Source: Ginglymostoma cirratum (Eukaryota). Taken from it: DNA of 64,000 nucleotides. Under the pieces are notes generated by a model. That model worked only from the letters and a program-made list of their open reading frames with translations, did no database searches and was not told the origin of the DNA. The position numbers were made by a program, and so were the translations under genes. Below, one piece after another: positions 9,400-58,518 of the stretch (position 1 is the stretch's first letter; every line of letters begins with the position of its first letter). The stretch is taken from NCBI GenBank assembly GCA_024137785.1, contig JAHRHZ010000018.1:34105819-34169818 (forward strand), in the 5' to 3' direction.

Positions 9400-10200
9400 A
9401 TATGAGACAAGGCACTTGTGCAGGACAAACAAGGCAAGGGAATACATGAAGAATGGTAGGACACTGGGGAGCAACAAGGATCAGAGGGACCTTGGTGTAC
9501 ATGTCCACCGATCCTTAAAGGTATTGGGACAGATGGATAATGTGGTTGACAAAGTATTTGGGATACTTGCCTATATTAGCTGAGGCATACAGTTTAAACA
9601 CAGGAAGGCCATGTTGGAACTGTACAAAACAGTGGTTAGGCCACAGCAAGAGTATAATGCACATTTCTGGAATCCACTTTAAAGGAGGGCTGTGATAGCC
9701 CTGGAGAAGGTACAGAGGAGATTTGCCAGGATGTTGCCTGGGTTGGAGAGTTTCAGTTACGAAGAGAGATTGGACAGACTGAGATAACAAGGTGTGGAGC
9801 TGAATGAACACAGCAGGCCCCCAAGCAGCATCATAGGAGCAGGAAAGCTTGACGTTTCGGGCCTAGACCAGTTTGTTTTCCTTAAAGTAGAGGAGACTGA
9901 GAGGGGACATGATTGAAATGTATTAAATTATGAGGGGCATAGATAGGGTAGACAGGAAGAGACTTTTCTCCTCGATACAGGGGTCAATGGCCAGGAGACA
10001 CAATTTTAAGGTAAGGGGCAGGTTTAGAGGAGATGTGGGGAATAACTTTTTCACTTAGAAGGTGGTGGGAATCTGGAACTCACTGCCTGTGAGGGTGGCA
10101 GAGACTAAAACCATCAGTATTTTTAAGAAGTTTTTAGGTGCGTACTTGAGATGCCACGCCATACAGGCTACAGGCCAAGTTCTGGAAAATGGGATTAAAA
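9400..10200 (+). mobile_element. CR1 LINE 3' fragment
   Basis: QRDLGVHVHRSLKV...FGILAYIS and VVGIWNSLP...TISIFKKFL are CR1 ORF2 C-terminal motifs. Confidence 0.85.
9781..9869 (-). mobile_element. Short subfamily B insert, truncated within the hammerhead, inserted into a CR1 3' fragment
   Basis: Minus strand ggtctaggcccGAAACGTCaagctttcctgctcc...gttatctc; CUGANGA is missing. It interrupts the CR1 sequence ...ggacagact|gtttgttttcc. Confidence 0.8.
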
Positions 10201-12810: not shown

Positions 12811-12882
12811 ATTCTGATGAAGGGTCACTGGATCTGAAACAGTGACTCTGCTTTCTCTCCACAGATATTACCAGACCTGCTA
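12811..12882 (+). mobile_element. Short subfamily A hammerhead-derived insert (3'-truncated)
   Basis: CTGATGA-AGGGTC(ACTG)GATCT-GAAAC..gactctgctttctctccacagat..ccagacctgct. Confidence 0.7.
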
Positions 12883-13289
12883 ATTTTGTCCCGTTTGTGT
12901 TAGGGCTGTGCCAACTTTGTACAAAGCTTAAACAGATGTCATTTGCGCTGCTTTGATTGAGAGGCCATCTGGTGAAGTTGGAAAAAGTAATTACCATTTG
13001 TTTGTGCTTTTTCTATGGAGTATTTTGTTGATAGTTAACAAAAGGCTAATATTACATTAGAATAAAGACTTGGCTAAGTTTCAAAGGCACAAATATCTCA
13101 GCACAATGTTCTGAGTTCAGAGCTTGTTAGTTTAAAGAGGCTATTAAAGAATTAGCTATCTGTGATGCAGGATCTAAATGGAAGACTTCTTCTTGTTTAC
13201 CCATTTAGGGAATCCCCCAACTTAAACAACCCTCCTTAATAGTGAAAATTTAGTCCACTAGGTGCAATTTTCATTATTAGTTAATGGAA

Positions 13290-16879: not shown

Positions 16880-16975
16880 GTGTTCTGAGGAAGGCAGACC
16901 TGAAACATTAACTCTGATTTTTTTCTTCACAGATGCTGCCAGACCTGCTGATCTTTTCCAGCAACTTTGTTTTTA
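16880..16975 (+). mobile_element. Short hammerhead-derived insert (subfamily A) with 15 bp TSD
   Basis: TSD ttagaaca(g/c)tatgtt at 16865-16879 and 16976-16990. Reads gttCTGAGGAaggcagacctGAAAcattaactctg...cacagatgctgccagacctgctg...ccagca. Confidence 0.82.
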
Positions 16976-17278
16976 TTAGAACACTATGTTTACTGTTTCT
17001 TGCTCTCACTTACTGAGTGTGTGCATGGGAACAAAATAATTAATAACAGTAGCTTTTACTAATCACAAGTTAGCTGCCCTTCTTTAAGAGGAAGAAAAGA
17101 ATTTGCCTTGCAATGACAATGATAAGAAAAAGAATGTCACCACAGCTTTGCCACTACAAAGTTAAAGAAGCAACCTTAATGCAATGTGGACCACCACATT
17201 ATCATCATCTTCCACTGACAATGTCAGAAAATGACGACATTATTGAGGTTGGTTGGCTCGCTGAGCTGGTTTGTTGTT

Positions 17279-17322
17279 CCGCAGACGTTTCATTAGCATG
17301 CTTGGTAACATCCTCAGTGCAG
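17279..17322 (-). ncRNA. Hammerhead ribozyme in the inverted pLTR arm (stem II partly decayed; same sense as TGFB2 pre-mRNA)
   Basis: Minus strand CTGCA-CTGAGGA-TGTTACCAAGCATGCTAAT-GAAACGTC-TGCGG. Confidence 0.75.
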
Positions 17323-19007
17323 CCTCTGATGAAGTGTCGGTATGTTTTCCCACCTGGTTTTTAAACTCTGGGGTCCGTTGCGATGGATTGCCTCACTTCC
17401 AGGTTTCCTCCATAGTGGAATGTATATGGGGTCGAGTTCTATGTGTTTATTAATAGCATGCTTCGTGGAGTGCCATGCTTCCAGGGATTCTCGTGCTTGT
17501 CTCTGCCTAGCCTGTCCCAGGATCTCGGTGTTGTCCCAGTCGAAGTCGTGGTCCTCCTTGTCCATGTGGATTGAGATGAGTGAGTATTGGTCGTGTCTTT
17601 TTGTAGTCAGTTGGTGTTCATGTACTCTTGTTGTTCGTTTCCTTCCTGTTTGTCTGATGTAGTGTTTCTCGCAGTGTCTGCAGGGGATCTTGTAGATGAC
17701 ATTGGTCCTGTACATGGCTGGGAGTGGGTCTTTATTTCGGGTGAGCACTTGTCGTAGGGTTGATGTGGGCTTTTGTGCCACTCTGATGCCTAGCGGTTGT
17801 AGGACCACTAGCAAGGGAAATAATGATAACACTACTTGAACAAGAACACGACTCCAGTGAAACCACCTCCAAGGACAACATGCTTAAACTACTGGACCTA
17901 TGCCTGACCATCCACTTCACCTTCAATGGCCAAACATATAAGTAATTCAACGGGACACCCCAGGGATCGCCTATCTCGGGACTCATAGCAGAAGCAGTGA
18001 TGCAAAGACCGGAAAGGACTGCCCTTCTGCAAATCCAACCTAAACTATGGATACGCTACGTAGACGACACCTTTGGCATCATTAAATGGACCAAATTAGA
18101 AGAGACACACAAACTCATAAACAACACCCTCACCGGAATAAAATTCACCAGAGAGGAGGAGAAGAACAAACAACTCCCATTCCTGGACATCATGGTAGAG
18201 AGCAAGACAAATGGGGAACTGCAAATGAAAGTTCACCAAAAAGCCCCACACACAGACCAGGTACTGAACTTCAATAGTAACCATCCCAGCGCACAGAAAC
18301 GAAGCTGCGTGCGAACACTATTTAAAAGGGCAACAACACACTGCAGCAACATGGAACTATGCCAAGGGGAGGAGGAATATCTCTTCCAAGTGTTCATGGA
18401 TAATGGATATCCAAAGCATTGGGTCAGGAGATGCCTACAGGAACAGCATCAGAAAGATTCTACACGCCGCGACACACTCATCACACAACCCTACAGCAGG
18501 AACACATGGGAACTCACCACAAGACTTCTACGACCGCTGGGCATCAGAGTGGCACAAAAGCCCACTTCAACCCTATGACAAGTGCTCACCTGAACTAAAG
18601 ACCCACTCCCCACCATGGACAGGACCAATGTCATCTACAAGATCCCCTGCAGAGACTACGAGAAACACTACATCGGACAAACAGGAAGGAAACTAACAAC
18701 AAGAGTACATGAACACCAACTGACTACAAAAAGACACGACCAATACTCACTCATCTCAATCCACATGGACAAGGAGAACCACGACTTTGACTGGGACAAT
18801 ACCAAGATCCTGGGACAGGCTAGGCAGAGACAAGCACGAGAATCCCTGGAAGCATGGCACTCCACGAAGCATGCTATTAATAAACACATTGAACTCGACC
18901 CCATATACATTTCGCTACAGAGGAAACCCGGAAGTGAGGCAATCCATCGCAACGGACCCCAGAGTTTAAAAACCAGGTGGAAAAACACACCGACGCTTCA
19001 TCAGAGG

Positions 19008-19051
19008 CTGCACTGAGGATGTTACCAAGCACAGTAACGAAACGTCTGCAG
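19008..19051 (+). ncRNA. Minimal type I hammerhead ribozyme in the Penelope 3' pLTR
   Basis: CTGCA-CTGAGGA-T-GTTAC(CAAGCACA)GTAAC-GAAA-CGTC-TGCAG: 5 bp stem I, full core, stem II, palindromic ACGU helix III and GUC cleavage triplet. Confidence 0.88.
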
Positions 19052-21320
19052 AACAACAAACCAGCTCGGCGAGCCAACCGACCTCAACACCCACTACCCG
19101 AGCTACAGATCTACTCCAAAACCTTAGTGATGACATTATTACTAAGGGGGGAGGGAATTAAAAATGCAAGTCTTTTACGTGCAGATTGAAGGCCGGAATT
19201 CCTCAATTCACCTGACTGGACTGCAACAGACCTTCCATCCACCATCGCAAACTTTGCCAGTTCCCCTGGGTTGGAGGTGATTGGATTTTCACCACAATAT
19301 TCCCTCACGATCACAAACAACAATTGAGGGCCCACCAGCGAACCACAGGAAAATTAAAATTGTGTTGTATCAGGACAACAGTTACAGTATGTGAAGTACC
19401 ACAGAACCCTGAACATTAGATTAACTCATTTGAGGAATTGAATGGATTTGCAGTTTAAGGCTTTGAGGGTGGAAGCTTTGAACAGGTTTGCAATTTGGTA
19501 GTTAAGGTAGCTCTATTAAACTTCCTCCCCCCATGCTCTCCACCTCCCCTCACATAGTATTTAAAAGGATTTTGGAAACTTCCCACAGCTGACTCAAGTC
19601 TATTTCCACCTTTCCTACTAAGCCAGCAGTGTCCATTCAGGATCCCTTTTTCACTCATCCTAACCAGTGCTGTTCAGATGCAGGAGGTAGAAAAGGCATT
19701 TCCAAAGCTGGTTCTGTCAGAGCTCATGGCGTGAAACTTCAAACTCGGACAGTAAAGTGTCTGTTGGCATCAACTGACCCATTTCTTGTCACTCTGTACC
19801 ATGATCGTACTCATTTCCAGGAGGATTAGAGAGGGGATTATAGCCCACACCATGTTATTACAGCAGAAACACAGCCAATATCATTTTGCACGTGATCTGA
19901 GGAGCATCACTTTCCCAGCACAGATCAAAAGTCTATACTAATCTTCCCATTCCATGCCTTTCCTTTCAAAATGCATGTATATTTATCTTTTAAATGTGAC
20001 TTTTTAATGTATTTTTTAATGAATATGTTTTCCTAACTGGCCCCCACTTGATCCTTCCCATTCCACTGACACAAGATGGACTGGAATGGTTTAAGCTGCC
20101 GTCATTTCCATAATGGCTTTCAACATGTCAAAGTATTTTCTAATGGGCCCCCAACTGAACTGAACAGACTCAGTTTTGTATGGTCCCTTTAGCTAATAAA
20201 CCCACTAACAATGGACAATGCTTTCCCAAAGAAAATAATCAGTGAAAGGGGCTCATGAAAATATTCAGCCTTTTGGTTAGGAGTCAAGAACTTGACTTTT
20301 TGAGATACTGGCTTGCTTCATACATTCCATATTTCAAGAAATAGCGAGACTATCAGCTTTACTGCCTGTGCTTTGGGAAATCATTACTTTCAGGGTAGAT
20401 AAGGATAGCAATGCCAGGCTAAGTAAAATGCTATTGCCAACAGATAACTGTAGAATGTAGGCTGTAAGCTAATATCAATTCAAACTGTCCAACAGACACC
20501 CTTCTGGATTATATTCATGTTTTGACTGTATATGATCCAACAGTCACAATACAGCGTAGTAGGTAAAAACTTCTTCAATTCCCACAGACTAATGCTGTAG
20601 TCGCTGAAATCTCTTTCCCCACTATGAGTGAGCTAAAAGTTCAGATCTACCATGACCATTCACGGCTGGGACTCTTGGGAAACTATATTTGACTCTTGAT
20701 CAAATTTTCCGACCCTAAATGACTACTACTTTCCCCTGAAAATACATTAATGTTTTGATTTGATTTTATGAGGAGATTGCTTTGAGAAAACAAACTGCAA
20801 AGTGTGAAGAATGCTGCCACTTCTGGGAGGCCTTGGCCCACCCTCATATCTCTCATATTTTTTTCAGATAGAAATCACTATTCAAAGGTGTTTTTCTCTT
20901 GCAATGAAAATGAACTTTATTAAAAGAAGTAATCTTAGAATTTTCTGGTCATGCTGTCAGTGGTATTATTGATATAATTCAATTTTGGCAGAGCTGCTAT
21001 TTGCAACAAATCCATTGCGCCTTCCAATGCAAAGGATAGGGATACAGTTTAACTTTTATTTTGTGAAAATAAAGGCTTCCTGGAAACATATAATTACAAA
21101 GTTAAATTAGTTTTGAATGTATAAGATCTTGAAGTGAGATAATAGAAGAGCTTTGTATTAATAGGTTGCACTTGGACACATTCTGGGAAGAAGCAAGTTA
21201 GCCTTCACTGATCTGTGGCTGACTAAACATGAGATACACATTTCTGAAGAGAAGTCTTAAGTCATATAGTTTAAATTTTATTCATGCAACTAGATTTGCA
21301 TTAAAAAGTCAGAAAAGCTA

Positions 21321-21418
21321 AAGCAAATACAAAGAATGCTGGAGAAAGTCAACAGGTCTGGCAGCATTTCTGAAGTGAGAAACATATTTAATGTTTCAAG
21401 TTGAGCATGACTTCAGTC
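21321..21418 (-). mobile_element. Short decayed subfamily A insert with perfect 14 bp TSD
   Basis: TSD agtcagaaaagcta at 21307-21320 and 21419-21432. Minus strand ..gaagtcatgctcaacttGAAAcattaa...atgctgccagacctgttgactttctccagca. Confidence 0.75.
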
Positions 21419-22089
21419 AGTCAGAAAAGCTATGTTTATTTGAAAGATCTACTTATTGCAATGCACTCAACGACAGCACATAAATAATATTATACCATTT
21501 TCACAACACTTTGCTGGATTTTTACATTGCTTTGCATTGATTGCAGTGTTCGAGATTAAACACGCTACATGTGGAATTGACAATTTCTCTCCTGGCTCCC
21601 ATTTGTACATAAACCAGCCAGTGACTGGAAATATAGCCTTATAGGCATTCAGAGGCAATGTAGTTTGGATCAGAATCCTGTGTTTTCTTTTTGTTGAGTG
21701 GAACATTTGGAGCAGGGAAGGGAAATACAGGAGAACACTAACTTTTCCAGAATAAAGACAGAGGATTCTGGAGATGCTAACAACAGGTCGTGAAACTGAA
21801 ACACTGTGCTGTGCTTTACAATGCATGGGGTTTGGAACGACAAAGCTAGAGTGAAAATCAGGCTCTCAAGTTGCTTTTGCAGGCACAAGGATCAGTCCAG
21901 TGATCTAACTGCTGATGGCCTCCAAAATGGCTGTCCAAATCCATGAGGGGCTAATCAAACCACACCCACACTTGCCACCTATCCACTGCTGGCAAAACCT
22001 CCCTGACTCCATAACTGTTGTAACACAGTTCCCATCGTTTTACCAGAATTCTGCATTTGTTCCTGCCACTCAAGCATCAGTTAAATTAA

Positions 22090-22345
22090 ACAAAAACCAA
22101 AGAACTGAGGATGCTGGAAATCAGAAACAATTTCAAACATTGCGAGAAAAACTCAGCAGGTCTGCCAGCATCTGTGGAGAGAAAACAGAGTCAATGTTTC
22201 AGGTCCAGGAATCCTTCTTCTGAACAAGTAAAATTCAGCCTGTTAAGACAATATTTCTCCTGATCTGCAGACCTGCTTAGTTTCTCCTAACATTTCCTAT
22301 TTTTTTTTCAGACGTGCAACATCTGGAGTATTTAGCTTCTTCAGT
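22090..22345. mobile_element. Subfamily A unit on the minus strand (22090-22225, with 3' tail) next to a decayed plus-strand remnant (~22255-22345)
   Basis: Minus strand gttcagaagaaggattcctggacctGAAAcattgactctg...cacagatgctggcagacctgctgag...tgatttccagcatcctcagttc. Confidence 0.68.
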
Positions 22346-27479: not shown

Positions 27480-28100
27480 TTCTATACACTCAATTATTCC
27501 AATGCGACCCTGAAAGAATGAGTTAATCCAAAACCCTCTGCCTGTACCTTAACTCATTCCAAGTCCCTGTTACCTCTGTGTTCACTGACCAATTTTGGCT
27601 CCTGATAAGGCAAAGCCTAGATTTAAAAATGTTCATCCTTGTTTTCAAAACCCTCCATGACCTTGCAATTCCTTCTCTCTGTAGCTTCCTGTAGCCGCAC
27701 TGCTCTTTGTGATTCTTTGATTTTGGTCTCTTGCACATCCCTGATTTTCATCATTTCCTTATTAATAGGCAGTCATGACTTCCACTGCCTTGGCTCTGGA
27801 CTCTGGAATTTCTTCTCTGAACTTCTCCACATCTCTTTCCTCCTCAAAGATGCTTTTAAAAACCTATCATTAATCGCCTGTCCTAACAACTCTTTACATT
27901 GTTCAGTGTGAAATTTTGTTTCATGAAGTTTCTGGGATGTGTCTTTGGAAGATTTCCAACATTAAAAATGCCATATAAAGAGTTCTGAGGAAGGGTTATC
28001 AGACCGAAATGTTAACTGTTTTTTCCTTCACAGATGCTGCCAGACCTGCTGGGCTTTTCCAGCAACTTTGATTTTTTCCCTATATAAAGGCAAGTTGTTG
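27480..28100 (+). mobile_element. L2 LINE 3' end, interrupted near its tail by the hammerhead insert
   Basis: atccaaaac..tgcc..ctcattccaagtcc..ttggctcc..tttaaaaatgttcatccttgttttcaaaaccctccatg, tail ..atataaa..caagttgttg. Confidence 0.7.
27981..28081 (+). mobile_element. Short subfamily A hammerhead-derived insert with 8 bp TSD, inside an L2 3' tail
   Basis: TSD atataaag at 27973-27980 and 28082-28089. Reads agttCTGAGGAagggttatcagaccGAAAtgttaact. Confidence 0.78.
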
Positions 28101-29833: not shown

Positions 29834-29997
29834 CTGATAAAGTTCTATTCGTTGTTCCTCTACTTTCGCCTTTGGATTCTGTAAACGAAACACTCTGAAC
29901 TCTGCCTTCACCAGGTTTGAAACATTTTTCTCCATTGAGGTGACATCTAAATACACACGTCTGAAGTATGGGTTATATTGTTGGGACGGGATGACAT
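29834..29997 (-). CDS. TGFB2: TGFB2 coding exon 2 (LAP prodomain), 164 nt
   Basis: Acceptor tttttcatgtag|AT completes A+AT = Asn with exon 1. Translates [55 protein letters not shown]; donor CAG|GTCATT. The [17 protein letters not shown] motif is characteristic of TGFB2. Confidence 0.95.
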
Positions 29998-35205: not shown

Positions 35206-38106
35206 ATGATCTAATCTCACCTCATTTCAATGCAGTTTGCTATTTTCCCACACAGTGTAGAAAAATTAAATGCTGACAGTTCCTGAGATGAAGGTCTGGG
35301 CAGGTACCAAGCACCTCCAGTTCACTGCTTACTCCTCCAGACCTCCATCTTGGTTAGCATTTCCCAACATCTCGGAGCATGTCCCATGAACTGGTAGCCA
35401 CCTCCATCCTTCATTCATTCAATTGGCATTGGACACGCACCAGCCTCACCACATCATCATGGCACTTGTCCAACACAGTTATGATACAGTTCACCCTTTC
35501 AATACTGCGCTTTGGAGCTCGCTGACACCTTTTGTGGCAATGCAGCTGCCAGGCCACTTTGAACATAGGCACAGGCACCCAGCTCGTGCATTGAAACACA
35601 GCGCATCTCAGAGGTCTTAGTTTGCTCTCTTAACACTCAATCACTTTGAGTCTACTTGGATGCTCAAAGCATCTTTGCCTTTTCTTGCCTTTCCCTTTAG
35701 CACAGACATAAAGGAAGGCAGCTCGTCATGGTTGCCAGGCAAGGGGGCGGCTATGTGTCAACAGCACCATGCCATAACATTATCACACCTACAGGCACAT
35801 TCCAGCATTGAATTTGCTTCAAACAAATTCCCATGCATAAAAATCTAAAGGATCTGGTGTCATTAGACAGGGGCTTCTGCCATATTCAGTTCAGAGCGTT
35901 GTACCCTCTCAGTCCATGTGCTTGAAAATGATCAGTCGGTTGCTTGAGGTATCCAAGGTCAGGAATTCTGTGTCATTTCGTCCAGACAGTGGGTCATGGT
36001 CAGACCTGCAGGACCGGTGCAAACAGTCTGGGGATTAGCAGTAAGTCTGTCATTGAGTTGCACAGAGTTCAGTTAAGGGTTCTGTCACTCTCAACAGTCT
36101 GACCTCTCTTTTCAAGTTGATCAGGGGTGGGACAGTCTGGGGGTTCTAATTGACTTGAATTCAAAAGGGATTATCAGGGCAACTACTGAGGTGGGAAAGT
36201 CAATTGTGGGAGTTTGAGAAAGCAAACTGGGATTGAGATTGGACATGAACTGTAAAGGCTTGTAACTCAATATGTATTAGGGTGGAAAACTATAATACAT
36301 TGGTGGGTGCAGTTTACTGTGGGAAGGGGATTCATCAATGCTCATCACTACCTTGGCTTCAGTAAGGGAAGGGTACTTCATGGTAGTTGGTATACTGAAC
36401 TGTAGGCCTGGGACTCAAGGTTTGTAGATGAAGATTTAAATTAAAATGTTGGGTGAGAACATTTGAAATGATGGGGTTGACAGGAAATGCAAAGAAGAAA
36501 GTAACTTGAAGGTTTGGGAAGATCACCTAGATTAATAGGCTGAGCCTGCAAGTCACCCTGCAAAGTGCAACAGGGATAACCTTCCCTCCTCATCTGAATC
36601 ACAGGTGCACAATGGGAGTTAAAAATGGCTGCACTACACCTGGAGTAGGCAGATTAAGGTTTCCTCCTGACTGAAGGAGCTGGCTCTATGCACAAGTGAT
36701 TTGAGGGTCTTCAGGGGCAATAGCATTTACCAGGCACTTATGCAGTACAGGTTAAAGACATTATAATCACTGAAATTTGTATATGGACCACAATCAGTAA
36801 CCAACTATGTTGATGCCAAATCCTGGCCACAAGCAATCGTGACCATATCATTGTCGTTGCAAATTGATCATAGTCATCTTCTTGAGGCTGAAGTAATTGC
36901 AGGTAACCTCAGGAGTGTCACTTGAAGGTCACAATTCACAAAGACAATCCACAATCTCAGAGGCTGCACACAGGCACAGACTGACATCTCCTCACCTTTA
37001 ACAATATTTAATAACATGCTCTTACATGCAATTCTGCCTTTTTTGAGTAATATGGGGCTGGGTGTTGCGGGGAGGAGGTGGGGGGAAGGTTTCAGTCATC
37101 CTACCACATTTCCAATCTCCTCCTGTATTTGTGTGATATCGCCTGTGCTGCAAACATTGGAAGAACGTTCACTACACCAAAGGTCCATGTACAGACAACC
37201 CTCCTTGTCAGGATTCGCCATGCCCCAATGTATCGAGGGCTATTCTGAACTGTCATTTGTGTGTGATGCAAATGCTGACTGCTCACATTACTAAGGACCT
37301 GCATTGTTTCTGATATCACTCACCCAGGCTCATTGCAATCATGGCCAATAGATCCAGTCACGAGAAGTTTTATCATCACTATGTCCATTGTACAATGAAA
37401 GCAAAGAGAAAGTGAGGAAAGGCAAATGAACCAGTAAGCCCAAGGCCAGCAGCAACCTCCAGCAGCTACCAAACAGTCTCTACACGAAGAATTTGTAGCT
37501 GAAGTTCCCCTCAGGATGAGGAAGAATTACAGGAAGTCCCCTTGTCAGGGCCAAGTGCAAATATAATGCTACTCATTCTTTGACAAGGCCAAGGGCTGCA
37601 GTGGAACAGATCTCCTGAAGATTAGGTTCTGATAACTAGAACGGTATGTGGGAGCAGGGCGTTTGAAGTACACTCGAGACAGAGTATGCCACATAATCCT
37701 TGCAAGCTGTGCTCTGCAGAAGTGGAGGGGATGTGATGGGTGCTGATGCGCTGGGAGAGCAGCAACAGTCTTCCAAAGAGGAAGAGGAGGATATTGAGCA
37801 GGAGGAACAGCACCTTTACCATGACATAGCAGCGCAGTACAGACACAACAAGTCAAACAGGGCTTAACAGATACCTGTTTCCAATTGATATGAATTGATT
37901 GAGGTCACCAATTGTTGACTGTAAATTTACTGTTGATTAAAAGGCATGCAGGTCCTATTTATTGCTAGAAACAAATGCCTTTTTTTTGTTAGCTTTTCCT
38001 TCACTTTTTCTGTTGTTTAATAAAAGTTAAAGTTAATGTTAACAAATATTTGAAACCTTTACAATATGCGATGCTCCAATATCCACCAAGACAAAATATT
38101 ACGCTA

Positions 38107-38351
38107 AACAAAAACAAAAAGAACTGTGGGTGCTGTAAATCAGGGACAAAAACAAAGTTGCTGGAAAAGCTCAGCAGGTTTGGCAGCATCTGTGAAGAAA
38201 AAAGTCACAGTTAATGTTTTGGGTCCAGTGACCCTTCCTCAGAATGAGTTTTATGAGGAAGGGTGACCAGACCCGAAATGTTAACTCTGATTTTTTTTCT
38301 TCACAGATGCTGTCAGACCTGCTGAGCTTCCAGCAATTTCTGCTTTTGTTC
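38107..38351. mobile_element. Head-to-head inverted pair of subfamily A hammerhead units (near-palindromic)
   Basis: Minus unit ~38107-38245 (CTGAGGAAGGGTCACTGGACCC...) and plus unit ~38246-38351 (..tgaggaagggtgaccagacccGAAAtgttaactctg). Degenerate flanking repeat aaaatattacgctaaac / aagatattatgttagac. Confidence 0.85.
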
Positions 38352-41049
38352 AAGATATTATGTTAGACTGGAAAACAATAGCAACCCTTTAGACAGAGTG
38401 CTAAAATGGTGCAGTACTAAGGACAGGTAACTGTTTGTAGCTGCATTCTTGTAGCTTCAGTTACAAGAACAGTCAAGTAAATTGGTGATAATGTAAAGTT
38501 GCAATACATCTATGAATGTGAGCATTTATTTCGAATGAAGTGTTACCGGTACCACCGATGTAGCCTTGGAAGCCTTGCTTTTACACTTCCCTCCCACTGT
38601 GAAGGGTTATTTGTGGCTGGCAGCATTTGACCTGGTGCAGAGCTGGAGTCTGAATATGGCGCTAGTGGGACAAATCCCACTTGTTCCTGTTATAGGCAAG
38701 TTTTTCTGTTACTGGTGAGCAGACAAGAGCGCAAGTGAGCGGCTTTGGGTACGGTGCGTCCATAAGGAGGTGAGCAGTGGAAAGTTGTGAGATAACTTGC
38801 CACAGCTCATGGAGGGAAACCCTCTGTAAAACTCCCCAAAATTGACACGTATGATTTTTTTGGTGAAATTCAGCCCTATGTCGATTTCTTTCAACAATAC
38901 TTTGAAATAACATACTCCAAAGTGTTGTAATACATGGTCCAACACACAGAACTGTACCATGCTGGATTCCATGGCCCACGCGTGAGTTCCAAATATTATC
39001 CTAAGATTCTGACTCAGTATCAAATCCAAGCATGTAACCCTGTTCTGAGCCAAACAGTAAATTAAAGGGATTTTCATGCCATATCACTTATGTACACAAC
39101 ACAGCATTGAGCAACAGAAGGGGTTCTGATGGGGTACAGGTAAGTGAAAGGAATTAAGCAGGATACCTGTGCACACACACTTAAAAATCTCTAACACGCC
39201 TGTATCATTCTTGTGGCACTACCCTCCAAAAGTATTCAGCCACAGTTACCAGTGTCTGTAGAGGAAAGCTATTAAATGTTAGAGCTATAGGTCTTTACTA
39301 TACTACTCCTCTTTTCAAGAATTTCTGGGTTGTTTCAATCAATATTTAGTGTGAACAATGGAAGGTAACTTTATAGGCACACAAATGAAGACAACTGCTT
39401 CCTGCTGTCATTATGATTGGCTGGAAATTATTTTAAAAGTCGTAAATAAGACTTGAGGGGGATTGTTGCATAGCACTTATTTTTCACTTGACAACATTAG
39501 TTTTCGTAAACCTTTCTAACAAAATAACGGCATTTTTAAATATTCCTGTACAGTCCTATGGAGTGGAATTAATTTGCAATTGATGCTGTTCAGGAAAGTT
39601 AACACTTTAATATAATTTCAAAAGTAAATTCTTTGCAGTGCTACGTAAAAACTGTTGAACCAGTCTTGGTGGCAAGGAAGATTTGTTTCAAGTCTAGAAA
39701 CTGATCGTTTTATGCCTGTCATGATTTTGTTTCAGTGTGGTATAAACATGAAGTAGTGGAATGGTTGCTTGTTTCTCAAATGTCTGTTCTGTGTGAGATT
39801 GAAAACAAATGGCTGATCCACTACCACCAGCTTCCACCCCAGCGTGCTTTTAAAGAAGTTTGAGTTGTTAACAAGCTAATGTCCTAATGTTGCCTTACAA
39901 ATGGTGAAGTCATTTCCCAAAACTGCACTCAGGTAAGTCACCTTTTTACTGAAAACAGTACTGCTGCTTTTCAGGAAAACTCACTCCACAGGAATTCAAT
40001 TTCCTGAGACCTATAGTACATTTCCAGTTATGTGGAGGAAACTATGGCCAGGAAATTCCTTGAAACTGCTTCTATTCTACCAGCACTACTTTGCCTGGAA
40101 TGTGGCATTACAGGATTCATGGTATGCTTCTGGAAAAATATTTATGGCAAATCAAGACCAGCTCCACGGAACCTGCTGGTCTATAGGAACACCAATTTAC
40201 ACCATTAATCCATCTACACTGATGGACAGTCAATATTGTGGTGCTGACAGCATAAGGATCATCAGCACAAAACTGCTCCATATCAATGAGCACATTTTGG
40301 CAGGGGGACACTTGTTGTAGCTCCAGTGGCACGGACACCCAGTTTCCCTGCTTTATCCCATTGCTGGACTATTTTTGCAGCGGTGAAATGGGGCTAACAC
40401 AAGGGCGACCTTTCCACATTCAGATTATCCAGTCAGCCTCCAGGTTCACAGTGTAACTGCTTAGAAGTGGCCTCTTGGTGTCAGATCAAGAAGAGTGGGA
40501 GGGAAGCATTACTTAGCAGGGACCCATTCTGCCTGCCTGGGTGAAGCAGTAACTATAGGCCACTCTGCCAAAGGATGCTCTGCTGCATCTCGTCATGCTG
40601 ACTTGGCTGCCAAAGTCACTTTATGATTAAAATATTCATTTGGAAACTTAATTCCAAACACAGTGCTTTGTGTTCCATTTTCTTCATTTGGAGAGGTCAA
40701 GAGCAGAACCCTAATCTTTGGGCTGCCCAAAGTCTCTGTATGTTTTGCCCAGACTTGCATCCTGGAGGGAACACTTCAGTTTCACTGCAGAATGTCATTA
40801 CAATATGAAAGTTACAACTGATAAGTCACAGCCTATTGGTCTAGAGAAAGGGCATTTCAAGTAGCCTCCAATGATAGGAGGGACAATTGTTACCTACTGG
40901 TCAGCCACTGACCAGTTCAAATTGGACTGTCCCTTAAGATAAAGAACTGATCTGCCTCTATCTTTCTCCTTCAATAGAGATTAGAGTTTTGCTCAACAAG
41001 TTGACATAGTCTAGCACACTATGCAAAAAAAAATTAATTCTTTCACCAC

Positions 41050-43620
41050 CATGCACGGCTCTGACAGAAGAATATAGCTGGCTAATAACATGGACAAGAC
41101 AGCAGTAAGTGGTCAGGGACTTGATAGAGTGAATATTGATGTAGCTTCTCTGCTAGAGATGACTGGCACCAGAATGCTGAAAGGAAAGGACCCCAAGTTC
41201 AACAAGCAAGGGAAGAGTTCAGAAGAAACACATGGGAAAGTGTAGGCTTTACCGTAAGGAACTTGCTACTCCCAATGACAGAAACCTCCACAAATGGTTC
41301 AGAATGTGTTCTTTCCATCGGCCTCTCAACTCAAGCAAGGCCATTAGCCTTATGAGTACTTACACGCCAATGTATGCTCTGCTACAGCAGTACCATGAGG
41401 AGCTTGGCACTGCTTTCACCAGAATCACTAAGTAAGAATATCATTACCTACTCAGGGATTTCAAATGTAAGAGCTATTGAGATCTGAGAAAGATAAATGA
41501 GAATGGACAGAGAATACTTGTGCTAAGCTGCTACCAATAGCTTTGTGTAACTCAAAGATTCTTTTCCACTAGGTGTCTGGAGATTTTGAAGTTCCAGGCA
41601 TCGGCACCAACTGGATCGGATTGCTAGATACGGTTATACAGATCACTCCCTGCTGTTCACCAGGGTTAGGGTGCAAGCCTTGATGATTCTCGTTGAAAGC
41701 TGAAATGCTGTCTCTGTATCTACATCATTGATACTGCCTACCTGGATAAAAAAAGCAACAATTCCTCAACTTGTTTGAATGTGGTATCTTCAAGCCTTCA
41801 CAAACAGAGTGAATAAGGGAAAAGAAAGATACTGGGGGACACCATCTACATTACCAGACACAAAACATGTAGGAAACAAGAATGGGAAACTGCTGGCTGT
41901 TTTGAGGTTAAAATCATTGAATTCAAGTGGTTTTTTTTCTTTTACTGTAAGAGAGGTCCAAGTAAGAAGACAGTGAATACATTAATAGCAGGTCAAATAG
42001 ACTGCTAGACAGCATGTCAATAACTGCAGCTTGCAACTTTGCCAGAATTTCCATATGTCCTTTGACACATGGAATACTAGAGACATACGAACGGATCAAA
42101 AAGGCAATAGGGCTATCAGCAAAAAAAATGAAAACATTGGAAACAAAGCCTGGGGAGATCATCACTGACTGCAGTAAACAGTTGGCGAGATGGTGCAACC
42201 CTGCCTTGAGTTGTACCCTAGGGAGAGCTCGATCATCAAGGAAGAATTTGACTCTACAGCATGCCTGCCTACCATAGAATATGATAATATCAAACCCACA
42301 ATGGGAGAGATTAGCAAAGCAATTGACTTGCTTGGCAAGGGCAAAGCTCCAGGTGCTGAAGATATACTACCAGAATTTATTGAGCATGGTAAACTGGTAA
42401 TCGGGCAGCATCTAAATGAACTGCTCTACCCGAGGGAGGGGCAGTGACTCAGAATATGCAGATTGTGACCTTGAACGTGACCAGGGTCAACTGCAACAGG
42501 TGCACCAAATATTGAGACATTGCCCTGCTGGGCACTGTGGGAAAGATATTAGCCTCTGCTGACCATGCTTCTGACTGCCTCCCAGTGTGGTTTCAGGGCT
42601 GGCAGATCTATAACTAATATGATATTCTGAGTCAGCAATGGTAAGAGAAAAATATGTGAAAAAAGAAGGTAGTGCTACAGTGTCTTTATTCGTCTTAGCA
42701 AGTCATTTAACTGTGAGAGGAGATGGTTTATTTAAACTGCTGGGAAAAATTGACCGCCTGTCAAATCTGCTCAATGCATTATCTTCTTTTCGTAACGGGT
42801 AAGGTCAGTTCGGACAGAGCAACATTACAAGCCTGTGACATCCACAGTGGGATTAAACAGATCTGATGTTCTTTGGCATATTCTACTCTTTGCTGCTATC
42901 GTATACTTTCGGGTCATCTACAGAGAATGTCATAACGGACAGAAAGCTAGTCATCCTTGCTCATTCGAGATCCTAGACAAAGGTGCACTAAGGCCTGCAC
43001 CACACTGCTAATGCTGCATTAGCATTCCTTAGTAAGACACACCTTCAGTGGCAAAAGGACAAATTCTCTCACACGTGTAAAGAGCTTGATTTGACCACCT
43101 GCATAATGACGAACATCATGGCCCAGCTTTTTGCCATACTGCCATTGATCAGCATTGCTAATGTGACTATGGAGGATGTCAATAGCTTCACATCTCCAGC
43201 CACCACAATCACCAGCTCTCTGCCATTTGGTGCTGAAATCAACACATGCATCACAAAAGCTTCAACTGAATAAGAGAGAGAGAATGGGACAATTGCAGCC
43301 TAATTGAGAACACCAAAACTAGGAGTTAGTATCCAGCATCCTAAGCACGCTCCTTTACAGCAGTAAGATCTGGACAATGTACACTAGGCAGGAGCAAAGG
43401 TTGAACAGTTTCCATCTTTGTCACCTCATATGTGTCCTCTGCACCTCATGGAAGGACAAGGTCACCAACTCATAGCTCCTGAAGTAGGCAAATTCAATTC
43501 ACATACACTGAGTGGTAAGCTACCAATGTCTGCACTAACTCAGCCAAGGTCACTGAATAAATGACAGCTGCATACCTAAAGACCATCTGTAAGGTGAACT
43601 GGCCACTGGTCCACTGGGCA
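41050..43620 (+). mobile_element. Decayed near-full-length RTE-clade LINE (APE endonuclease + RT)
   Basis: KTA...LDRVNIDVASL.E; YERIKKAIG...GEIITD.SKQLARW; PTMGEISKAIDLLGKGKAPGAEDI.PE; QCGFRAGRS.TNMI. Confidence 0.75.
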
Positions 43621-43884
43621 GCCATTCCTTCAATAACAATGGGGGAAAATAATCATGTGCTCTGGTCTTTCTATTGTTTCCAGGCTCCTTACTCCTCTCC
43701 TACCCCCACTTTAATCCTTCCCTTTACATCTTCCAGAATTGCAAATACTGTGAAGGTAATTTTTTTCCCCTTGAGCATTCTTCTTGAGATTTTTCTTAAG
43801 GGCTGCTTTTGATTTCAGGAGCTTCTTTTTCATTCTCACTAACTTGATGCAATCACTTAATAACATGAACTTCTGTATTCATGC

Positions 43885-44750
43885 GTTGCTGAAAAAAGAC
43901 CTATTTTGTTGAAACTTTTCTTCTTATACACATCAGGACAATTCACAAGAATACCAATCCAACAGAAAAAAAGACATTTATATTATATGACAAGCGAGTC
44001 CTGATTGTTTGGCAAGGGGACTCTGATTGGTAGAGACATTGCCATGGAGAACACACCTGTGAATTCTGATTTAGAGAAAACTGTGAGGCTTTGTTTTAAT
44101 TTTAAACCAGGCAGATGAGCTTTGGCTAGTCAGATCATTGCCCTGAAAAATGAACCAGTGATTGGCTGTCACTGATTTTGTTAAATTGAAACAGGCACAG
44201 TGTGTGTACCAGCTCTTTCTGTCTATAAGGAGCAAAACCCACCCTATTAATATATGTACCTCTGGTAAATGCACTTTTACCACACTGTGATCCTGACTGA
44301 TATCCAAAACTATGAGGACAGACCAGGACCTGAGGGCATAGCTTCAAAGTGAAGGGGTCACTTTTTAGAACAGAGATGAGGAAGGACTTTTTCAGTCAGG
44401 GAGGGGTGAATCTGTGGAATTTATTGTTGTGGAAGGCTATGGAGGTCAAGTCATTGTGTGTATACAAGACAGAGATGGATAGGCTCTTGATTAGTAAGGG
44501 ATCAAAGGTTATGGGAGAAGGCATGAGAATGGTAAGGAGAAACATATCAGCCATGATTGAATGGTGGAGAAGACTCAATGGGCTGAATGGCCAAATTCTA
44601 TTCCTATATATTATGGTAATATGGCTGTTAATATAATTCCTTGTGCACTCAGAATTATCTAGCAAATGTTGTCCAATTGCAGAATGACACAATGTTGAAA
44701 GTTTTGCAAGCACAGGCTGGGTGAGTACAGTCAATGCCTCATTTGTCACA
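43885..44750 (-). mobile_element. Old second Penelope-like family 3' end (GIY-YIG C-terminus plus decayed hammerhead at ~43906-43941), interrupted by a CR1 fragment
   Basis: Minus frames give SAIGQHLLDNSEC..Y and TYI...RQKELVHTLCLF; downstream tgtcCTGATGtgtataagaaGAAAagttTCaaca resembles a decayed type I hammerhead. Confidence 0.6.
44310..44625 (+). mobile_element. CR1 LINE 3' fragment
   Basis: FRTEMRKDFFSQGGVNLWNLL...KTEMDRLLISKG followed by a typical 3' UTR. Confidence 0.85.
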
Positions 44751-44971
44751 AATGGAAGAAGGAATATGCTGTTTGATAATACTCTGTCAGTCTTTGGAAT
44801 AGATGGTCCACAGACATGGCATCACACTGGCAATGAAATTTATATACCATATTATTCAATTGTGTGTAATCTAATTAGGGTAGCTATTATCCAACAGTAT
44901 GGCTTTGATGCACCTTTGTTCAGTATATCTCACTTCATTGTTTTAAGAGAGGGAAGACTCCACAATTGGAT

Positions 44972-45297
44972 GGGGGAGGTGATGGCCTAGTGGTATCACT
45001 AGACTATTAGTCCAGTGACTCAGGTAATGTTCTGGGGAGCCACGTTTGAATCCCACCATCGCAGATGGTGGAACTTGAATTCAATAAGATGCTGGAGTTA
45101 AGCATTTAATGTTAACAATGACACCATTTGGTTCACTAATGCCCTTTAGAGAAGGTAACTGCAATCCTTACCTGGTCTGGCCTACGTGTGACTCCAGACC
45201 CATAACAACACTGCAGACATTTAACTGCCCTCTATGCAATTAAGGAGAGGCAATAAATGCTGGCCTAGCTAGCAACACCCATATCCTGTGAATGAAT
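44972..45297 (+). mobile_element. tRNA-derived SINE, full length
   Basis: gggggaggtgaTGGCCTAGTGG...GTTTGAATCCcacc...ggcaataaatgctggcc...tgtgaatgaat. Confidence 0.85.
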
Positions 45298-46429
45298 TTT
45301 GAAAAACATTTGCCTCCAAGCCCCATTCCAGCATCCTGACTTGAAACTTGGAACAATATCACTGTTTCATCATTGCTGCTGGCTGAAAATGCTAGAACTC
45401 CTTCTCTAACAGCACTGTGAGTATACCTGCAGTCTAAGGTTTGCGGTAAGTGAATGTTCTCATACAGTGCCAGTTTCTCACAAATATCTCAGCCTGAAAG
45501 CAGAGTTCAGAATCCCATTGGGAGATTCCCCTAGTGACACTCATGATCCAATCCTTAATATTTACATTCATCTTCATAGTAAGCACACACCCTTTACTAG
45601 TAAGACAAGGAACAACCTTACGAAAAGGAACACCATGTACTTTTTCAAACCCACTCAATATTTCTTATATTATAACACATTTTACTTTTACTCATTTAAC
45701 GTTCAATCTGCTTCAGACTACACTTCCCAAACTTTGTTTCACTGTAATCCCAGACAGAGGCATGAAAATTGCCACAACCCCTCAGTGAAAGTGGAGAGAA
45801 AGAGGGCTGGCTGGAGAAAGTGTATGGCTGTTGGAACTTAGTCGAAGCTCCAAGGCAGCTATTAGTGCTTCAGGTCACACAACCCCAAAATTTTAGCTTA
45901 TGAACCAATTAGAAACACTCTATCCCTCATTCTGGAAAGCCCTGGCTTAAGATGCACTGTAAGAAGTATTGCTGCTTGTAGTCTTTAACAATTAAAACCT
46001 GACAACTTCCCTTCACCTGAAAGAAAAATGTTAAAGTTCAAACTTATTTTGAGCACATTAAATAAACACGAAAATTAAAGGGTACAGTTTAGGAAAAAAA
46101 ACTCTGCCATATGTCGGCAAGTTTTGAAAGTTAATTAGATAATGTTTTCTTGGAAAGAAAACTGCACCATTTCACTTATCTCAGCAGTAAAACAGACAAA
46201 ATGTTTATTCCATTTGTCACAGCACACTGACACTGGTCATCTGGAATGCTCTACGCTATTTGTTTTTCTCCACATGTAACTGTTCTTATTGAACGAACAA
46301 TTGAAAACACAGAGAATATGTTTTACGTAAGAATGAAAAATCATTTAAAATAATGCATGATTAAAACCAGAGAACCTAATTGGGATGCATATTTCAATCA
46401 TTTTACCTGCAATAAACTCCTTTTGTGGC

Positions 46430-46742
46430 ATGACAGGCATCATTGACAAGACCAGCATGCATTGCTCATTCCAAATTATCACTGAACTAATTGACTTGTT
46501 AGACATTTGAGGGCAGTCAAAAGTCAATAATATTGCAATGGATCTAGAGCCACATATAGATCAGAATGGATGAGGATGGTAGATTTCCTTCTCTAAAGGA
46601 CAACTGATGATATGGTCATTAGTATTTATAATTCCTGAATTATCAATCGAATTTAGGCTCCTCCAGCTGTTGTGGTGGGATTAAATCCCATGTCCCAGAG
46701 CACTAGCTTAGCCCAGTGACGTTACCACTATGCCAACATCTC
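46430..46742 (-). mobile_element. Decayed copy of the same SINE
   Basis: Homology to the 2782-3121 body and head. Confidence 0.65.
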
Positions 46743-47344
46743 TGCCAAGTTTGGTGGTGATGAGGAACCTGATCCAAAGTCCTATACTGCTTTTATGTAG
46801 TGAGGCATTGTCTCAGCTCACCTCATACTTTTTCAGTTTCTACATGTTACATGCTGGCAAGAGTTGACGTGTTCCAGGACCCGAGAGAAATCATGGACTC
46901 AGGTGCTTCTCCTGTTTCTGTCCCATTTCAACATGACACAATTTACAACCATGGCTTTGTCAGACAATTGGACACAACTTGGTTGTTTGTATTATGCAAC
47001 CAGCTCTACATTTTGGAATTAGATCCTACACAATATCCAGACAGCACCAATATCAAACAGGTTTGAGCCTCACAAGCACAACAAGCAACAATCCTCTCTA
47101 CAAATGTAAAAATGTCAAACCAGCAGTGACATATTATGTTGGCATGTAACACCTGGTTTTACTTCCAAGTTTAAAAAATGGCAAAACCTTCCAGTATATT
47201 AGCACCATCAAATTTGTTATTTTTATTCACACAAGCGGGCTTTGTTAACAGAAATATTGCATATTGCACTGAATGATGAATATTTTCTCATTTTAAGTAG
47301 GAGCAAGCTGTACTTATATATGCCCAGCAGGGAGAATATAACAG

Positions 47345-47550
47345 AAAAACAAAACACTATAAATGCTGGAAATCTGAAGAGAAAATGCTGAAAATGTTCA
47401 GCAGGCCAGGCAGGAGTAGTAGAGAGAGAAAAAGAGAGTTAATGCTTGAGGTTCATGATCTGCACTCGCTCAGATGAAAGGTCATTGACCTCTATTTGTC
47501 TCTCTGCACAGATGTTGCCAGATGTGCTCAGCATTTCCAACACTTCCCAC
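47345..47550. mobile_element. Older decayed head-to-head pair of subfamily A units
   Basis: Minus unit ~47345-47460 and plus unit ~47468-47550 (cagatgaaaggtcattgacct...cacagatgttgccagatgtgctcagcatttcca). Confidence 0.6.
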
Positions 47551-48330
47551 TTCTACTCGCTTTTGCGAGCCCTTCAAAAAAAATCAATAAGACTTATTGT
47601 GTGTCTCTCATTCCCCTTCAGCAAGAAACCCAGCAGCAGCTGCCTGCAATCTGGTTTGGCACAACATTAAACACGAATTTCAAAAGACAAATGTTCAGGT
47701 AGGCAAAAAAAAAACCACACACAACCTGCTGAGGCAAAATCATTCATTGTCAAATGAGTGATTAATAAAAATGATCATTAAAATGCAAAGCAGGATAGTT
47801 AACCAATAAAACTTCTGGGCTTTAGCACTTGAGAAGCAAGGTAGAGGGAGACAGATCAGCCCCTAAGACGTGGTTAACATGAGAGGAGGAGGGGGCTGGA
47901 GAAGATATAGAGTTGAGTTTAACTAACAATGAGCCTGTACTCACCTCCGGTGCCTCAGGCTTTAAACTAGTCTTGATGTAATACATATGAAGGTGGGGTT
48001 CAGCTGTAGGTGGCCTTTCAGCCTGGGTTTCCCTCCTCTCCCTGCTTGATGTGTATGTGGATAGGTTTTTGGGAAGGGAGGAGGGTACATACCCCCGAAC
48101 CAAGCAGCCGGTGTATGCCTGTACGTGTGTGCCCAATTCACAACCACTCTCAGGGTTCTGTCTCATCTATTCTCTCACCCTGCTCACTCTTCTCTTAATC
48201 TCATTCAGTCAGTGTCTCCCACACCCACTTACTTACTTACTCTCTTAGTCACACTCACCTACACTTTCCCACACTCACTCACTAACACTCACATTCACTC
48301 CGTCACTCACACCCAGTTATTTCCATACTC

Positions 48331-48441
48331 GAGATAACAAGCATGGGGCTGGATGAACACAGCAGGTCAAGCAGCATCATAGGAGCAGGAAAACTTGACG
48401 TTTCGGGCCTAAACCCTTCATCAGAAATGGACCATCAGAAA
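48331..48441 (-). mobile_element. Short hammerhead-bearing retro-insert (subfamily B) with 13 bp TSD
   Basis: TSD tatttccatactc at 48318-48330 and 48442-48454. Minus strand reads ..ttCTGATGA-A-GGGT(TTAG)GCCC-GAAACGTC-aagttttcctgctcctatgatgctgc...gttatctc. Confidence 0.85.
48392..48429 (-). ncRNA. Minimal hammerhead with intact core, same sense as TGFB2 intron 1
   Basis: CUGAUGA at 48424-48418 and GAAACGUC at 48404-48397; 4 bp stem II; weak 4 bp stem I (AUUU/AAGU). Confidence 0.75.
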
Positions 48442-50329: not shown

Positions 50330-51160
50330 ACAGCATCATGATACAGGGAATCATTCAAGGGGGGGAAAGCCACTTGAATCGGAATGTAGTTATGGTTGGA
50401 TACAGTATAATAGGTTATTAGATATAGTTCTTTGCAGTTATCAGCAAGAGTCCTGAAGACTATGTTGCCTGCCCAGGTTAAGGACATCTTCTCGGACAGG
50501 AGAGGTACTTGGACTGGAAGGAGAAGGATCTAGATGTCATTGACAACAATGGTACCAACAGCACTGGTGGATAATTTTTGTCCCCTTATCTAAGGAAAGG
50601 CATTGGAGGCAGTCCAGGGAAGGTTCACTTGTTTGATACTGGATACAGAGGGATTGTCTTAAACTTGATGGGCTGAAAGGCATTTTCTTAGCAGTAGACC
50701 TGTATGCCTCAATGAGAGATTGAGTGGATTGGGCCTGTACTTGTTAGAACATAGAAGAATGAGAGGTGACCTGGTTGAAACATACAAGATGCTTAGGGGA
50801 CTCGACAGGTTAGATATGGAAAGGTTGTTTCCTCTTGTGTGAGATTCTAGGAGCAGACAGAATAACCTCAGAATAAGGGGTCATGCATTTCTCAGAGAGA
50901 TGAGGAGGAATTTCTTCTCTCAGAAGGTTGTAAATATGCAAAATTCTTTACTGCAGAGAACTGTTGATACTGGGTCATTAAGTATATTCAAGGTTGAGAC
51001 AGACAAATTTTTAATTAGTAAGGGAATCAAGGGTTATTGGGAAAAGGGAGCAAAATGGAGTTGACTGTTATCAGATCAGCCATGATCCCATTGAATGGAA
51101 GAACAGACTTGACAGGCTGAATGGCCTACCACTGCTTTCATGTTTTACAGTTTTATGGTG
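50330..51160 (+). mobile_element. CR1 remnant: ORF1 SGNH-esterase-like piece (~50330-50560) next to an ORF2 3' end (~50570-51160)
   Basis: Decayed VVMVG.SI..., CCLP...DI and GTN motifs, then the CR1 3' end (gagaggtgacctggttgaaacatacaag...tcagccatgatc). Confidence 0.65.
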
Positions 51161-53631: not shown

Positions 53632-53751
53632 TTTCTGAAGAAGGGTCCTAACCCAAACCGTCAACTTTCCTGCTTCTCTGATTCTGCCTGGCCTGCTGTG
53701 TTCCTCCAGCTCCACACTGTTATCTCTGACTCCAGCATCTGCAATTCTTGC
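53632..53751 (+). mobile_element. Short hammerhead-derived insert (subfamily B, with 3' tail) with 12 bp TSD
   Basis: TSD tatcactccatt at 53620-53631 and 53752-53763. Reads CTGAAGA-AGGGT(CCTA)ACCC-aaacCGTC (GAAA box mutated); body homologous to 48331-48441. Confidence 0.8.
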
Positions 53752-57704: not shown

Positions 57705-57992
57705 TTTCAAAGCTGGGCAGTTGCAAAGTTGAAGAGAGAGAGCGAGAGAGAGTGGGTGGGTTGTGAGGGCCAGGGAAACAAGAGAAAGAATCAGCTGCAG
57801 CTTGTGACCGTCACGCGAAAAGAATCAACAAGTTAAATATTTACAATAAAAGAAAAAATATAAAGAGGAAAGGCACTTTTTGTTGCTATCGTTTAACCTT
57901 GATTCTCAAGTCCTGTGCAGTTCAATGACTCCCTTCTGGTTGCAGCTGTAGTCCAGGCGCTAAAGCTGCTTCTGCCGAGGATCAACACACCT

Positions 57993-58001
57993 TCACTTCA
58001 T
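57993..58001 (-). promoter_or_regulatory. Minimal uORF (MK*) in TGFB2 5' UTR
   Basis: Minus strand gcgATGAAGTGA. Confidence 0.4.
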
Positions 58002-58484: not shown

Positions 58485-58498
58485 ATGTCTCACTTTAC

Positions 58499-58504: not shown

Positions 58505-58518
58505 TTGCCTCCATGGAG

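Follow-up and report, generated by a model that had tools for sequence, protein, structure and literature searches.

A 244-bp head-to-head pair of hammerhead-bearing pLTR units in a shark TGFB2 intron with the features of a Penelope-like insertion

The window, that is the whole 64,000-nucleotide stretch of Ginglymostoma cirratum DNA that was analysed, carries a TGF-beta propeptide exon on its minus strand (57351-57824), for which the closest solved structure is TGF-beta 2 (E value, 4.8e-44). A second exon-like frame, which resembles exon 2, lies near 29850-29980 (minus). Exon 1 near 57350-57750 and this exon-2-like frame place the insert described here (38107-38350), together with several other units, in intron 1 of TGFB2. 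A broken LINE-type RT fragment was recognized at 11452-12353 (minus; RVT_1; E value, 3.7e-11), with related 3' pieces at 10278-10573. Another dispersed repeat family is represented by decayed copies at 2777-3132, 13328-13460, 44961-45304, and 46496-46602 and is probably a shark SINE. A separate short hairpin at 9171-9248 belongs to neither of the subfamilies (A and B) considered below, and its matches to microRNA models are weak and below threshold.

A search with an nhmmer profile built from eight window copies identified 12 subfamily A and B units at 10 loci (E value, <= 1.6e-5; the next match had an E value of 0.25), and two of these loci are head-to-head pairs (Table 1). TSDs of 8-15 bp were found at eight of the ten loci, one of them weak (8/9), and the TSD search gave no convincing duplication at the 12811 copy or the 47345 pair. 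The first-pass annotation had described 47345-47550 as a similar pair; its head-to-head arrangement stood (E values, 1.8e-7 and 1.6e-5), and a convincing TSD was not found. A pattern scan for further loci gave no match in viral contigs, nine in metagenomes, and five in prokaryote genomes, and all 14 matches covered 21-27 nt only and were dismissed as chance.

Table 1. Positions of the head-to-head insert, its parts, and related copies in the window.
Feature	Position	Strand	Remarks
TSD, left copy, 15 bp, boundary +/- ~3 nt	38092..38106	.	12/15 vs 38351-38365
3' tail, 38 nt, minus unit only	38107..38144	-	Unmirrored in plus arm; solo copy 22088-22225 also has tail
Mirrored arm, minus unit (pLTR-like unit, subfamily A)	38145..38244	-	Sequence comparison of arms
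Degenerate minimal type I hammerhead, minus unit	38208..38244	-	Core 38242-38236; G12 -> A at 38220; stem I 5' strand cut short by junction
Non-palindromic centre, 6 nt, including first bases of plus unit; too small for internal TSD	38245..38250		
Degenerate minimal type I hammerhead, plus unit	38246..38287	+	C3 -> A at 38253
Mirrored arm, plus unit, ends at short 3' end	38251..38350	+	
TSD, right copy, 15 bp	38351..38365	.	12/15 vs 38092-38106
Subfamily B, short end, 5' part replaced by other sequence	9785..9893	-	TSD 9/9
Decayed subfamily A copy	12811..12893	+	No convincing TSD
Solo subfamily A, short 3' end	16880..16975	+	TSD 14/15
5'-truncated Poseidon-type PLE, another family	17245..19127	.	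TSD 12/13; 560-nt inverted arm; forward RT-thumb-GIY-YIG; 40-nt tail
Solo subfamily A, short 3' end	21321..21418	-	TSD 14/14
Solo subfamily A with tail	22088..22226	-	Weak TSD 8/9
Solo subfamily A, short 3' end	27981..28081	+	TSD 8/8 to 9/10
Older head-to-head pair, tail on minus unit	47345..47550	.	nhmmer E 1.8e-7 and 1.6e-5; no convincing TSD
Subfamily B, short end, hammerhead core 11/11	48331..48441	-	TSD 13/13
Subfamily B, long end	53632..53751	+	TSD 12/12

The insert is a 244-bp near-palindrome composed of two subfamily A units of ~100 nt joined head-to-head at their ribozyme ends, as the first-pass annotation had proposed. In the pairwise alignment of the arms (minus unit, 38107-38244/5; plus unit, 38246/51-38350), 85 of 99 aligned columns were identical, with 14 mismatches and three further small internal indels. 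The tail is confined to the minus unit and measured 38 +/- 2 nt (38107-38144), in agreement with the ~40-nt excess claimed for that unit, and it has no mirror in the plus arm. The plus unit ends at 38350/38351, the terminal C being common to unit and TSD. Six bases at the centre are unpaired, and the centre can close a 6-nt loop. Minus-strand RNA of the insert was predicted to form a single hairpin (-126.8 kcal/mol; z = -15.1) that none of 200 shuffles matched in stability. Matches to microRNA models at this position were weak and below threshold, and the insert looks harmless. The tail was a repeat of the preceding segment in one of the four units tested, namely the minus arm (6 of 2000 shuffles; 1033, 182, and 913 of 2000 for the others). 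A 34-37-bp repeat and an internal promoter have been described for the tail of PLEs (PMC2377424).

Near the short end, the two arms differ (AATTTCTG vs AACTTTG), and the difference matches distinct common variants in a related shark, organism A, and in two solo copies. No listed derived base is common to both arms, and only one differing site is possibly at the level of subfamilies. In one alignment, the 16880 copy was closer to each arm (9.7% and 12.9%) than the arms were to each other, which is compatible both with two separate primings and with fold-back copying of one arm, neither model excluding it.

The distribution of 3' ends was tallied from 12 ends, all from the window. Measured from a common anchor, the TSD-bounded subfamily A units showed four short ends (31-36 nt) and two long ends (72-73 nt), two classes separated by ~38 nt in the window. 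Subfamily B had two short ends and one longer by 23 nt, and the Poseidon-type family described below had two short ends and one longer by 40 nt. The two discrete 3' ends claimed earlier for subfamily B were therefore recovered (short in the 9785 and 48331 copies, long in the 53632 copy), and two end classes, as had been expected, occur in all three families among the window ends. Because solo copies use it, the short end is an insertion end in its own right. The 3' ends of the units are T-rich. Of the eight A/B units with a located hammerhead core, seven begin 2-7 nt ahead of it, and the eighth has a 13-nt duplication in front. These 5' ends do not coincide with the cleavage site, which is ~30 nt further on, and none of the 12 units runs 5' of the hammerhead into shared sequence. 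The 48331 copy contains a short duplication of the unit start between its 5' TSD and the unit (48428-48441), and in the 9785 copy ~26 unrelated bases stand between the 5' TSD and the unit (9868-9893).

A single TSD was identified around the whole pair: CAAAATATTACGCTA (38092-38106) and CAAGATATTATGTTA (38351-38365) match at 12 of 15 positions, and all three mismatches are transitions. Displaced positions served as controls, with boundaries either fixed at the unit ends or loose. None of 396 controls reached the score of the pair with unit-defined boundaries, 35 of 398 reached it with loose boundaries, and five other 15-mers among the 63,985 in the window match as well as the TSD. The TSD search found none around either half alone (best half score, 1 vs 7 for the pair), so that one duplication encloses the pair and neither half has its own, as the first-pass annotation had predicted. 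Position 38095 in organism A is G, the base of the right TSD copy, in all three contig sets, and the match there is at least 13/15, given the single position seen. Four features of EN+ PLE insertions are found in the pair, namely a head-to-head inverted copy, a tail at one end, a single TSD, and the layout of minimal type I hammerheads. It is highly probable that the pair represents one insertion event by a PLE-type mechanism. The earlier proposal that the mini-elements integrate by this mechanism is supported by the single TSD and by the two 3' end classes in the window.

It is very improbable that this structure arose from two separate insertions, with the later one placed in opposite orientation against the 5' edge of the earlier. 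Such an event is conceivable in that PLE endonucleases can cut their own pLTR (PMC11167929) and in that the 16880 copy is at least as close to the arms as they are to one another, but neither half has a TSD, the centre leaves <= 6 nt, and head-to-head pairs recur, with a second one in the window and many in organism A. Even less weight is given to a MITE or fold-back DNA transposon, or to an assembly artefact. The insert is short, palindromic, TSD-flanked, and non-coding, and a similar 12-nt A-rich word begins both termini (18 of the 30 terminal bases match between the ends), as might be expected of a MITE; however, 38 terminal nucleotides are unmirrored, single arms occur with TSDs of their own, and TSD length varies from 8 to 15 bp rather than being fixed. 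The solo copies rule out a MITE or fold-back DNA transposon. An artefact is contradicted by the 14% difference between the arms, and assembly error is excluded since both flank-element junctions are present in a second species.

To that second species belong public contigs of organism A, in three sets from three studies, which were aligned to 37750-38750 (flanks ~4-5% different); a raw-read run of organism C aligned to the same interval yielded one read. In all three sets, one contig runs from the left flank 29 bases into the tail, with three differences, and other contigs pass from the right flank into the plus arm for 23-25 bases; both overlaps are shorter than the 31-letter bridging criterion. 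The left-flank contig continues into the tail, which an empty site would not do, so the insertion probably took place before the two species diverged. No empty site, seen as a skipping joint, occurred among the 15 joints listed of 342 in organism A.

The family is very abundant in organism A, with 43,000-63,000 matching contigs per run. Among the loose ends listed, the top one in all three sets was 38244, the hammerhead start (1414, 1405, and 954 contigs), and agreement beyond it was low, as expected for unique flanks. Loose ends listed at 38155-38159 reflect subfamily differences and not 3' ends. Head-to-head pairs made up 11 of the 15 joints listed of 342 (60, 70, and 53 contigs), and three of the 15 were artefacts of the mirrored reference. 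In the listed pairs, one arm is complete to 38242-38245 and the other is shortened by ~40-85 nt, exact junctions being blurred where alignments break at the T tract. Near-complete pairs exist at other loci too, as eight of the 24 listed pieces run across the centre and carry 15-23 differences. Three other arrangements were observed. A tail-to-tail composite (joint 38330 to 38146, 11 letters between) had a depth of 350-440 compared with 12-20 for the single-copy flank (X1, X7), and this composite was itself amplified. The joint 38143 to 38255 combines an inverted tail-only piece with a full unit and was seen in X1 and X7, in a single contig of depth 46 and 154, respectively. In run X7, the joint 38244 to 38160 leads head-to-tail from a tailed unit into the next at a word common to tail and 5' end, a possible route to tandem, retrozyme-like forms.

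The claim of two opposing hammerheads held for their layout, with 10 of 11 core positions kept in each arm. Neither is intact: the minus arm has lost G12 and the plus arm C3, and a CpG-type change has removed the CG palindrome at 15.2-16.2 from both. Both positions are canonical in the family majority of organism A, at 55% of the depth for 38220 and 73% (C) for 38253. All 11 core positions are present in 3 of the 12 window units, and the 15.2-16.2 palindrome is present in intact copies. The A/B units show the minimal-hammerhead traits of PLEs: an extra base after A9, G10.1-C11.1, and no helix III. No Rfam hammerhead match was obtained in the window at gathering or E-value thresholds, covariation of the hammerhead pairing among the 12 decayed window copies was not above shuffles (344 of 500 equally paired), and the isolated hammerhead folds were no more stable than shuffles. 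Both hammerheads of the pair are probably dead, to judge from their core changes. Minimal hammerhead motifs need a second copy of the same sense to cleave (PMC4209133), which a head-to-head pair cannot supply. In this pair the ribozymes mark the family and are no sign of activity.

The core boxes, extra base at 9/10.1, G10.1-C11.1, and missing helix III are those of the minimal type I hammerheads reported for metazoan PLEs, which occur mostly as dispersed single motifs; in Schistosoma, dual motifs lie 100-700 bp apart on opposite strands (PMC4209133). Unlike these dual motifs, the two motifs of the pair abut, with cores 11 nt apart, and are mutated. The available text of PMC4209133 contains no analysis of TSDs or tails for the dual-motif pairs and no mention of shark.

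A larger element at 17245-19127 had been cited as the autonomous example of the same asymmetry. The asymmetry was confirmed, with the end of the inverted arm at 17245 and that of a 40-nt tail at 19127, but the element is not autonomous: it has an RT and a weak GIY-YIG match, is broken, and is truncated within the RT. It also showed no match to subfamily A or B by blastn (E < 0.01) or nhmmer (E < 5), so that it illustrates the hallmark and did not supply the template. The closest vertebrate relatives of its RT are Chiloscyllium and Stegostoma proteins. Its tail translates as an ORF N-terminus (62% over 39 aa to P0011) and ends ~110 nt after the start codon, as in PAc, the Poseidon element of Anolis carolinensis; by this likeness the element may be regarded as Poseidon-type. 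Its two arms begin 725 nt apart. A three-way comparison of Poseidon arms gave 14, 17, and 10 private changes in 558 columns, a result that does not tell one template from two. A second Poseidon-type copy, 94% identical and with a short 3' end, lies at 62866-64000 (minus) and runs off the window.

No second PLE-type RT was detected in the 64-kb window, and peptide searches, an Atlas search, and a second search from P0065 found no RT-encoding element with a subfamily A pLTR. The query of the partner search, a 33-aa peptide read from the minus arm, had two matches. One, a leucine-rich-repeat protein, was rejected as chance. The other, whale-shark gene model P0065 (g46612.t1), ends in the subfamily A peptide, tail included. 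By eye, its first 79 residues read on the opposite strand fit the PLE RT motifs in order, and we take them to be Neptune-like. Against a profile of 62 Poseidon-type proteins, this antisense RT reading scored 13.8 (shuffled mean, 14.7), and 350 of 3000 shuffles equalled it in the number of conserved residues matched. These residues may be a PLE RT on the wrong strand that links subfamily A to a Neptune-like element, and P0065 is a lead only.

The combination of an inverted pLTR, a tail, and a TSD has already been published for PLE insertions (PMC3846280; PMC8557442), so the hallmark invoked at first pass is in print. EN+ PLE insertions such as Pen2a_Av carry an inverted pLTR in head-to-head arrangement, have a tail of 30-40 nt at just one end, and are enclosed as a whole by a single TSD of at least 8-10 bp (PMC3846280; scheme in PMC8557442), as is the case for the pair described here. 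Unlike them, the pair has no ORF: its arms are of pLTR length (~100 and 139 nt), and each extends to the start of the hammerhead. In vitro, the PAc enzyme cuts and extends both strands, and RT starts at two internal sites that define the tail; the enzyme is predicted to be a dimer, and hammerhead cleavage is not needed (PMC11167929). These start sites lie ~100-140 nt downstream of the hammerhead and the targets are AT-rich (PMC11167929), a likeness to the mini-elements, but the latter are a different sequence family, with U-rich rather than AC-rich ends.

A single TSD, two 3' end classes, a fixed 5' end, and varied pair junctions were observed. The best explanation, to which we assign a probability of about 0.8, is one retrotransposition by a PLE enzyme (RT + GIY-YIG) acting in trans, the insert consisting of two hammerhead-bearing pLTR ends. 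The enzyme would nick both strands of AT-rich DNA ~15 bp apart, and each nicked 3' end would prime reverse transcription inside a PLE RNA. Priming at a distal start site would give the tailed arm and priming at a proximal site the tailless one. Both cDNAs would run to the 5' end of the RNA, just before the hammerhead, after which the two short cDNAs would be joined head-to-head and repair would fill in the TSD. As the palindrome would be assembled by joining at insertion, it would not be a travelling unit. Such a copy, ending at the start site, probably has no downstream binding region and would be dead on arrival. If RT began in the 5' pLTR, any PLE transcript would yield cDNAs of pLTR length that lack this region. 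Given a single PLE-type event, two primings are slightly favoured, and the use of two start sites accounts for the short arm ending where solo copies end.

The mirror arm of the same PLE-type event could also have been produced by fold-back, in which cDNA or antisense RNA self-primes at the centre and the endonuclease then trims at the short site. Palindromic PLE junctions have been read in print as products of self-priming (PMC3846280), and the tail as a product of EN-mediated resolution (PMC8557442); an antisense RNA route has been proposed for rotifer PLEs. Here, the centre can close a loop of 6 nt, and in the middle part of the unit both arms belong to the same subfamily. Because the centre fits fold-back and two primings alike, fold-back remains a strong rival; it falls short of even odds once a single PLE-type event is granted, and as an explanation overall it is possible with somewhat less confidence. 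Several details speak against fold-back: the end of the short arm coincides exactly with that of solo copies, one site at which the two arms differ has distinct common variants in organism A, and the arms of the Poseidon copy in the window begin well apart. The difference near the short end hints at two templates, although two later mutations from a third variant would also produce it. A two-RNA, two-primer reaction, in which a dimeric enzyme primes from both nicks on separate RNAs and copies each from one of the two internal start sites to its 5' end, is a tentative and rather doubtful extension of the two-priming reading. Under it, the arms of the pair would derive from different master copies, and solo pLTRs, tailed pLTRs, and head-to-head pairs would all be dead ends of reverse transcription that starts internally in the 5' pLTR.

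A further possibility is a dedicated non-autonomous family (non-LTR retrozyme monomers or a SINE-like RNA) that borrows a PLE enzyme. Non-LTR retrozymes are short, non-coding type I hammerhead units, related to pLTRs and dispersed as monomers, like the mini-elements, and are present in one chondrichthyan (PMC7229834; 10.64898/2026.07.22.740005). Non-autonomous PLE derivatives have also been published (PMC8557442; 10.64898/2026.07.22.740005), and the lack of shared sequence 5' of the hammerhead in all 12 window units, the very high contig counts of organism A, and the one head-to-tail junction of a tailed unit to the next in run X7 are what such a family might show. However, retrozymes form head-to-tail tandems with intact hammerheads, whereas the pair is head-to-head with dead ones; the available text of 10.64898/2026.07.22.740005 has no occurrence of "head-to-head," "palindrom," or "tail." By the definition of that 2026 preprint, an active non-LTR retrozyme was rejected, the units being head-to-head and not tandem and each core being mutated. 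No tandem array occurs in the window, and the fixed, unpermuted ends do not suggest circular templates. The Poseidon enzyme, moreover, needs RNA beyond the RT start sites (for PAc, the first 172 nt of its ORF), which the copies here do not contain (PMC11167929).

Neither a Pol III B box nor a tRNA head was found in the units. A tRNA-derived SINE was rejected: there was no tRNA and no B box within one mismatch on either strand, A-box matches were loose only, and the 3' ends are T-rich. The mini-elements may be dead ends derived from a longer RNA instead of a family that propagates itself. A dedicated family is held to be credible but not probable. Within a single PLE-type event, a longer PLE RNA, autonomous or internally deleted, is the rather likely template, and a dedicated short RNA would be the less expected one.

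The formation of inverted and tailed PLE insertions has been called undefined (PMC8557442), and the in vitro study left the steps after priming unvalidated (PMC11167929); in its available text, inverted pairs and solo pLTR inserts are not treated, and "solo" does not occur. In a literature search that had most subscription journals, Repbase, and Dfam outside its range, no paper was found on ORF-less head-to-head pLTR inserts of sharks, a family that may already have a name; nor, with most subscription journals again outside, was one found on a two-primer formation of PLE inversions.

The pair is the known PLE footprint of inverted pLTR plus tail reduced to the pLTR, and what it offers is material for testing a mechanism rather than a new system. 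ORF-less pairs of ~245 bp fit into one read and carry both ends, the junction, and the TSD, and the mini-elements are abundant in sharks, with 12 units in 64 kb and tens of thousands of matching contigs in organism A. Because the pairs are short, complete, and abundant, arm-by-arm typing of subfamilies can decide between two primings and fold-back. If true, the two-RNA reading would explain the long-unexplained inverted pLTR without self-priming, and it is testable on very many copies. Such pairs will also be classed wrongly as MITEs or as microRNA hairpins. In the host, this copy would place a predicted 100-bp double-stranded stem in the TGFB2 pre-mRNA, for which no function need be supposed.
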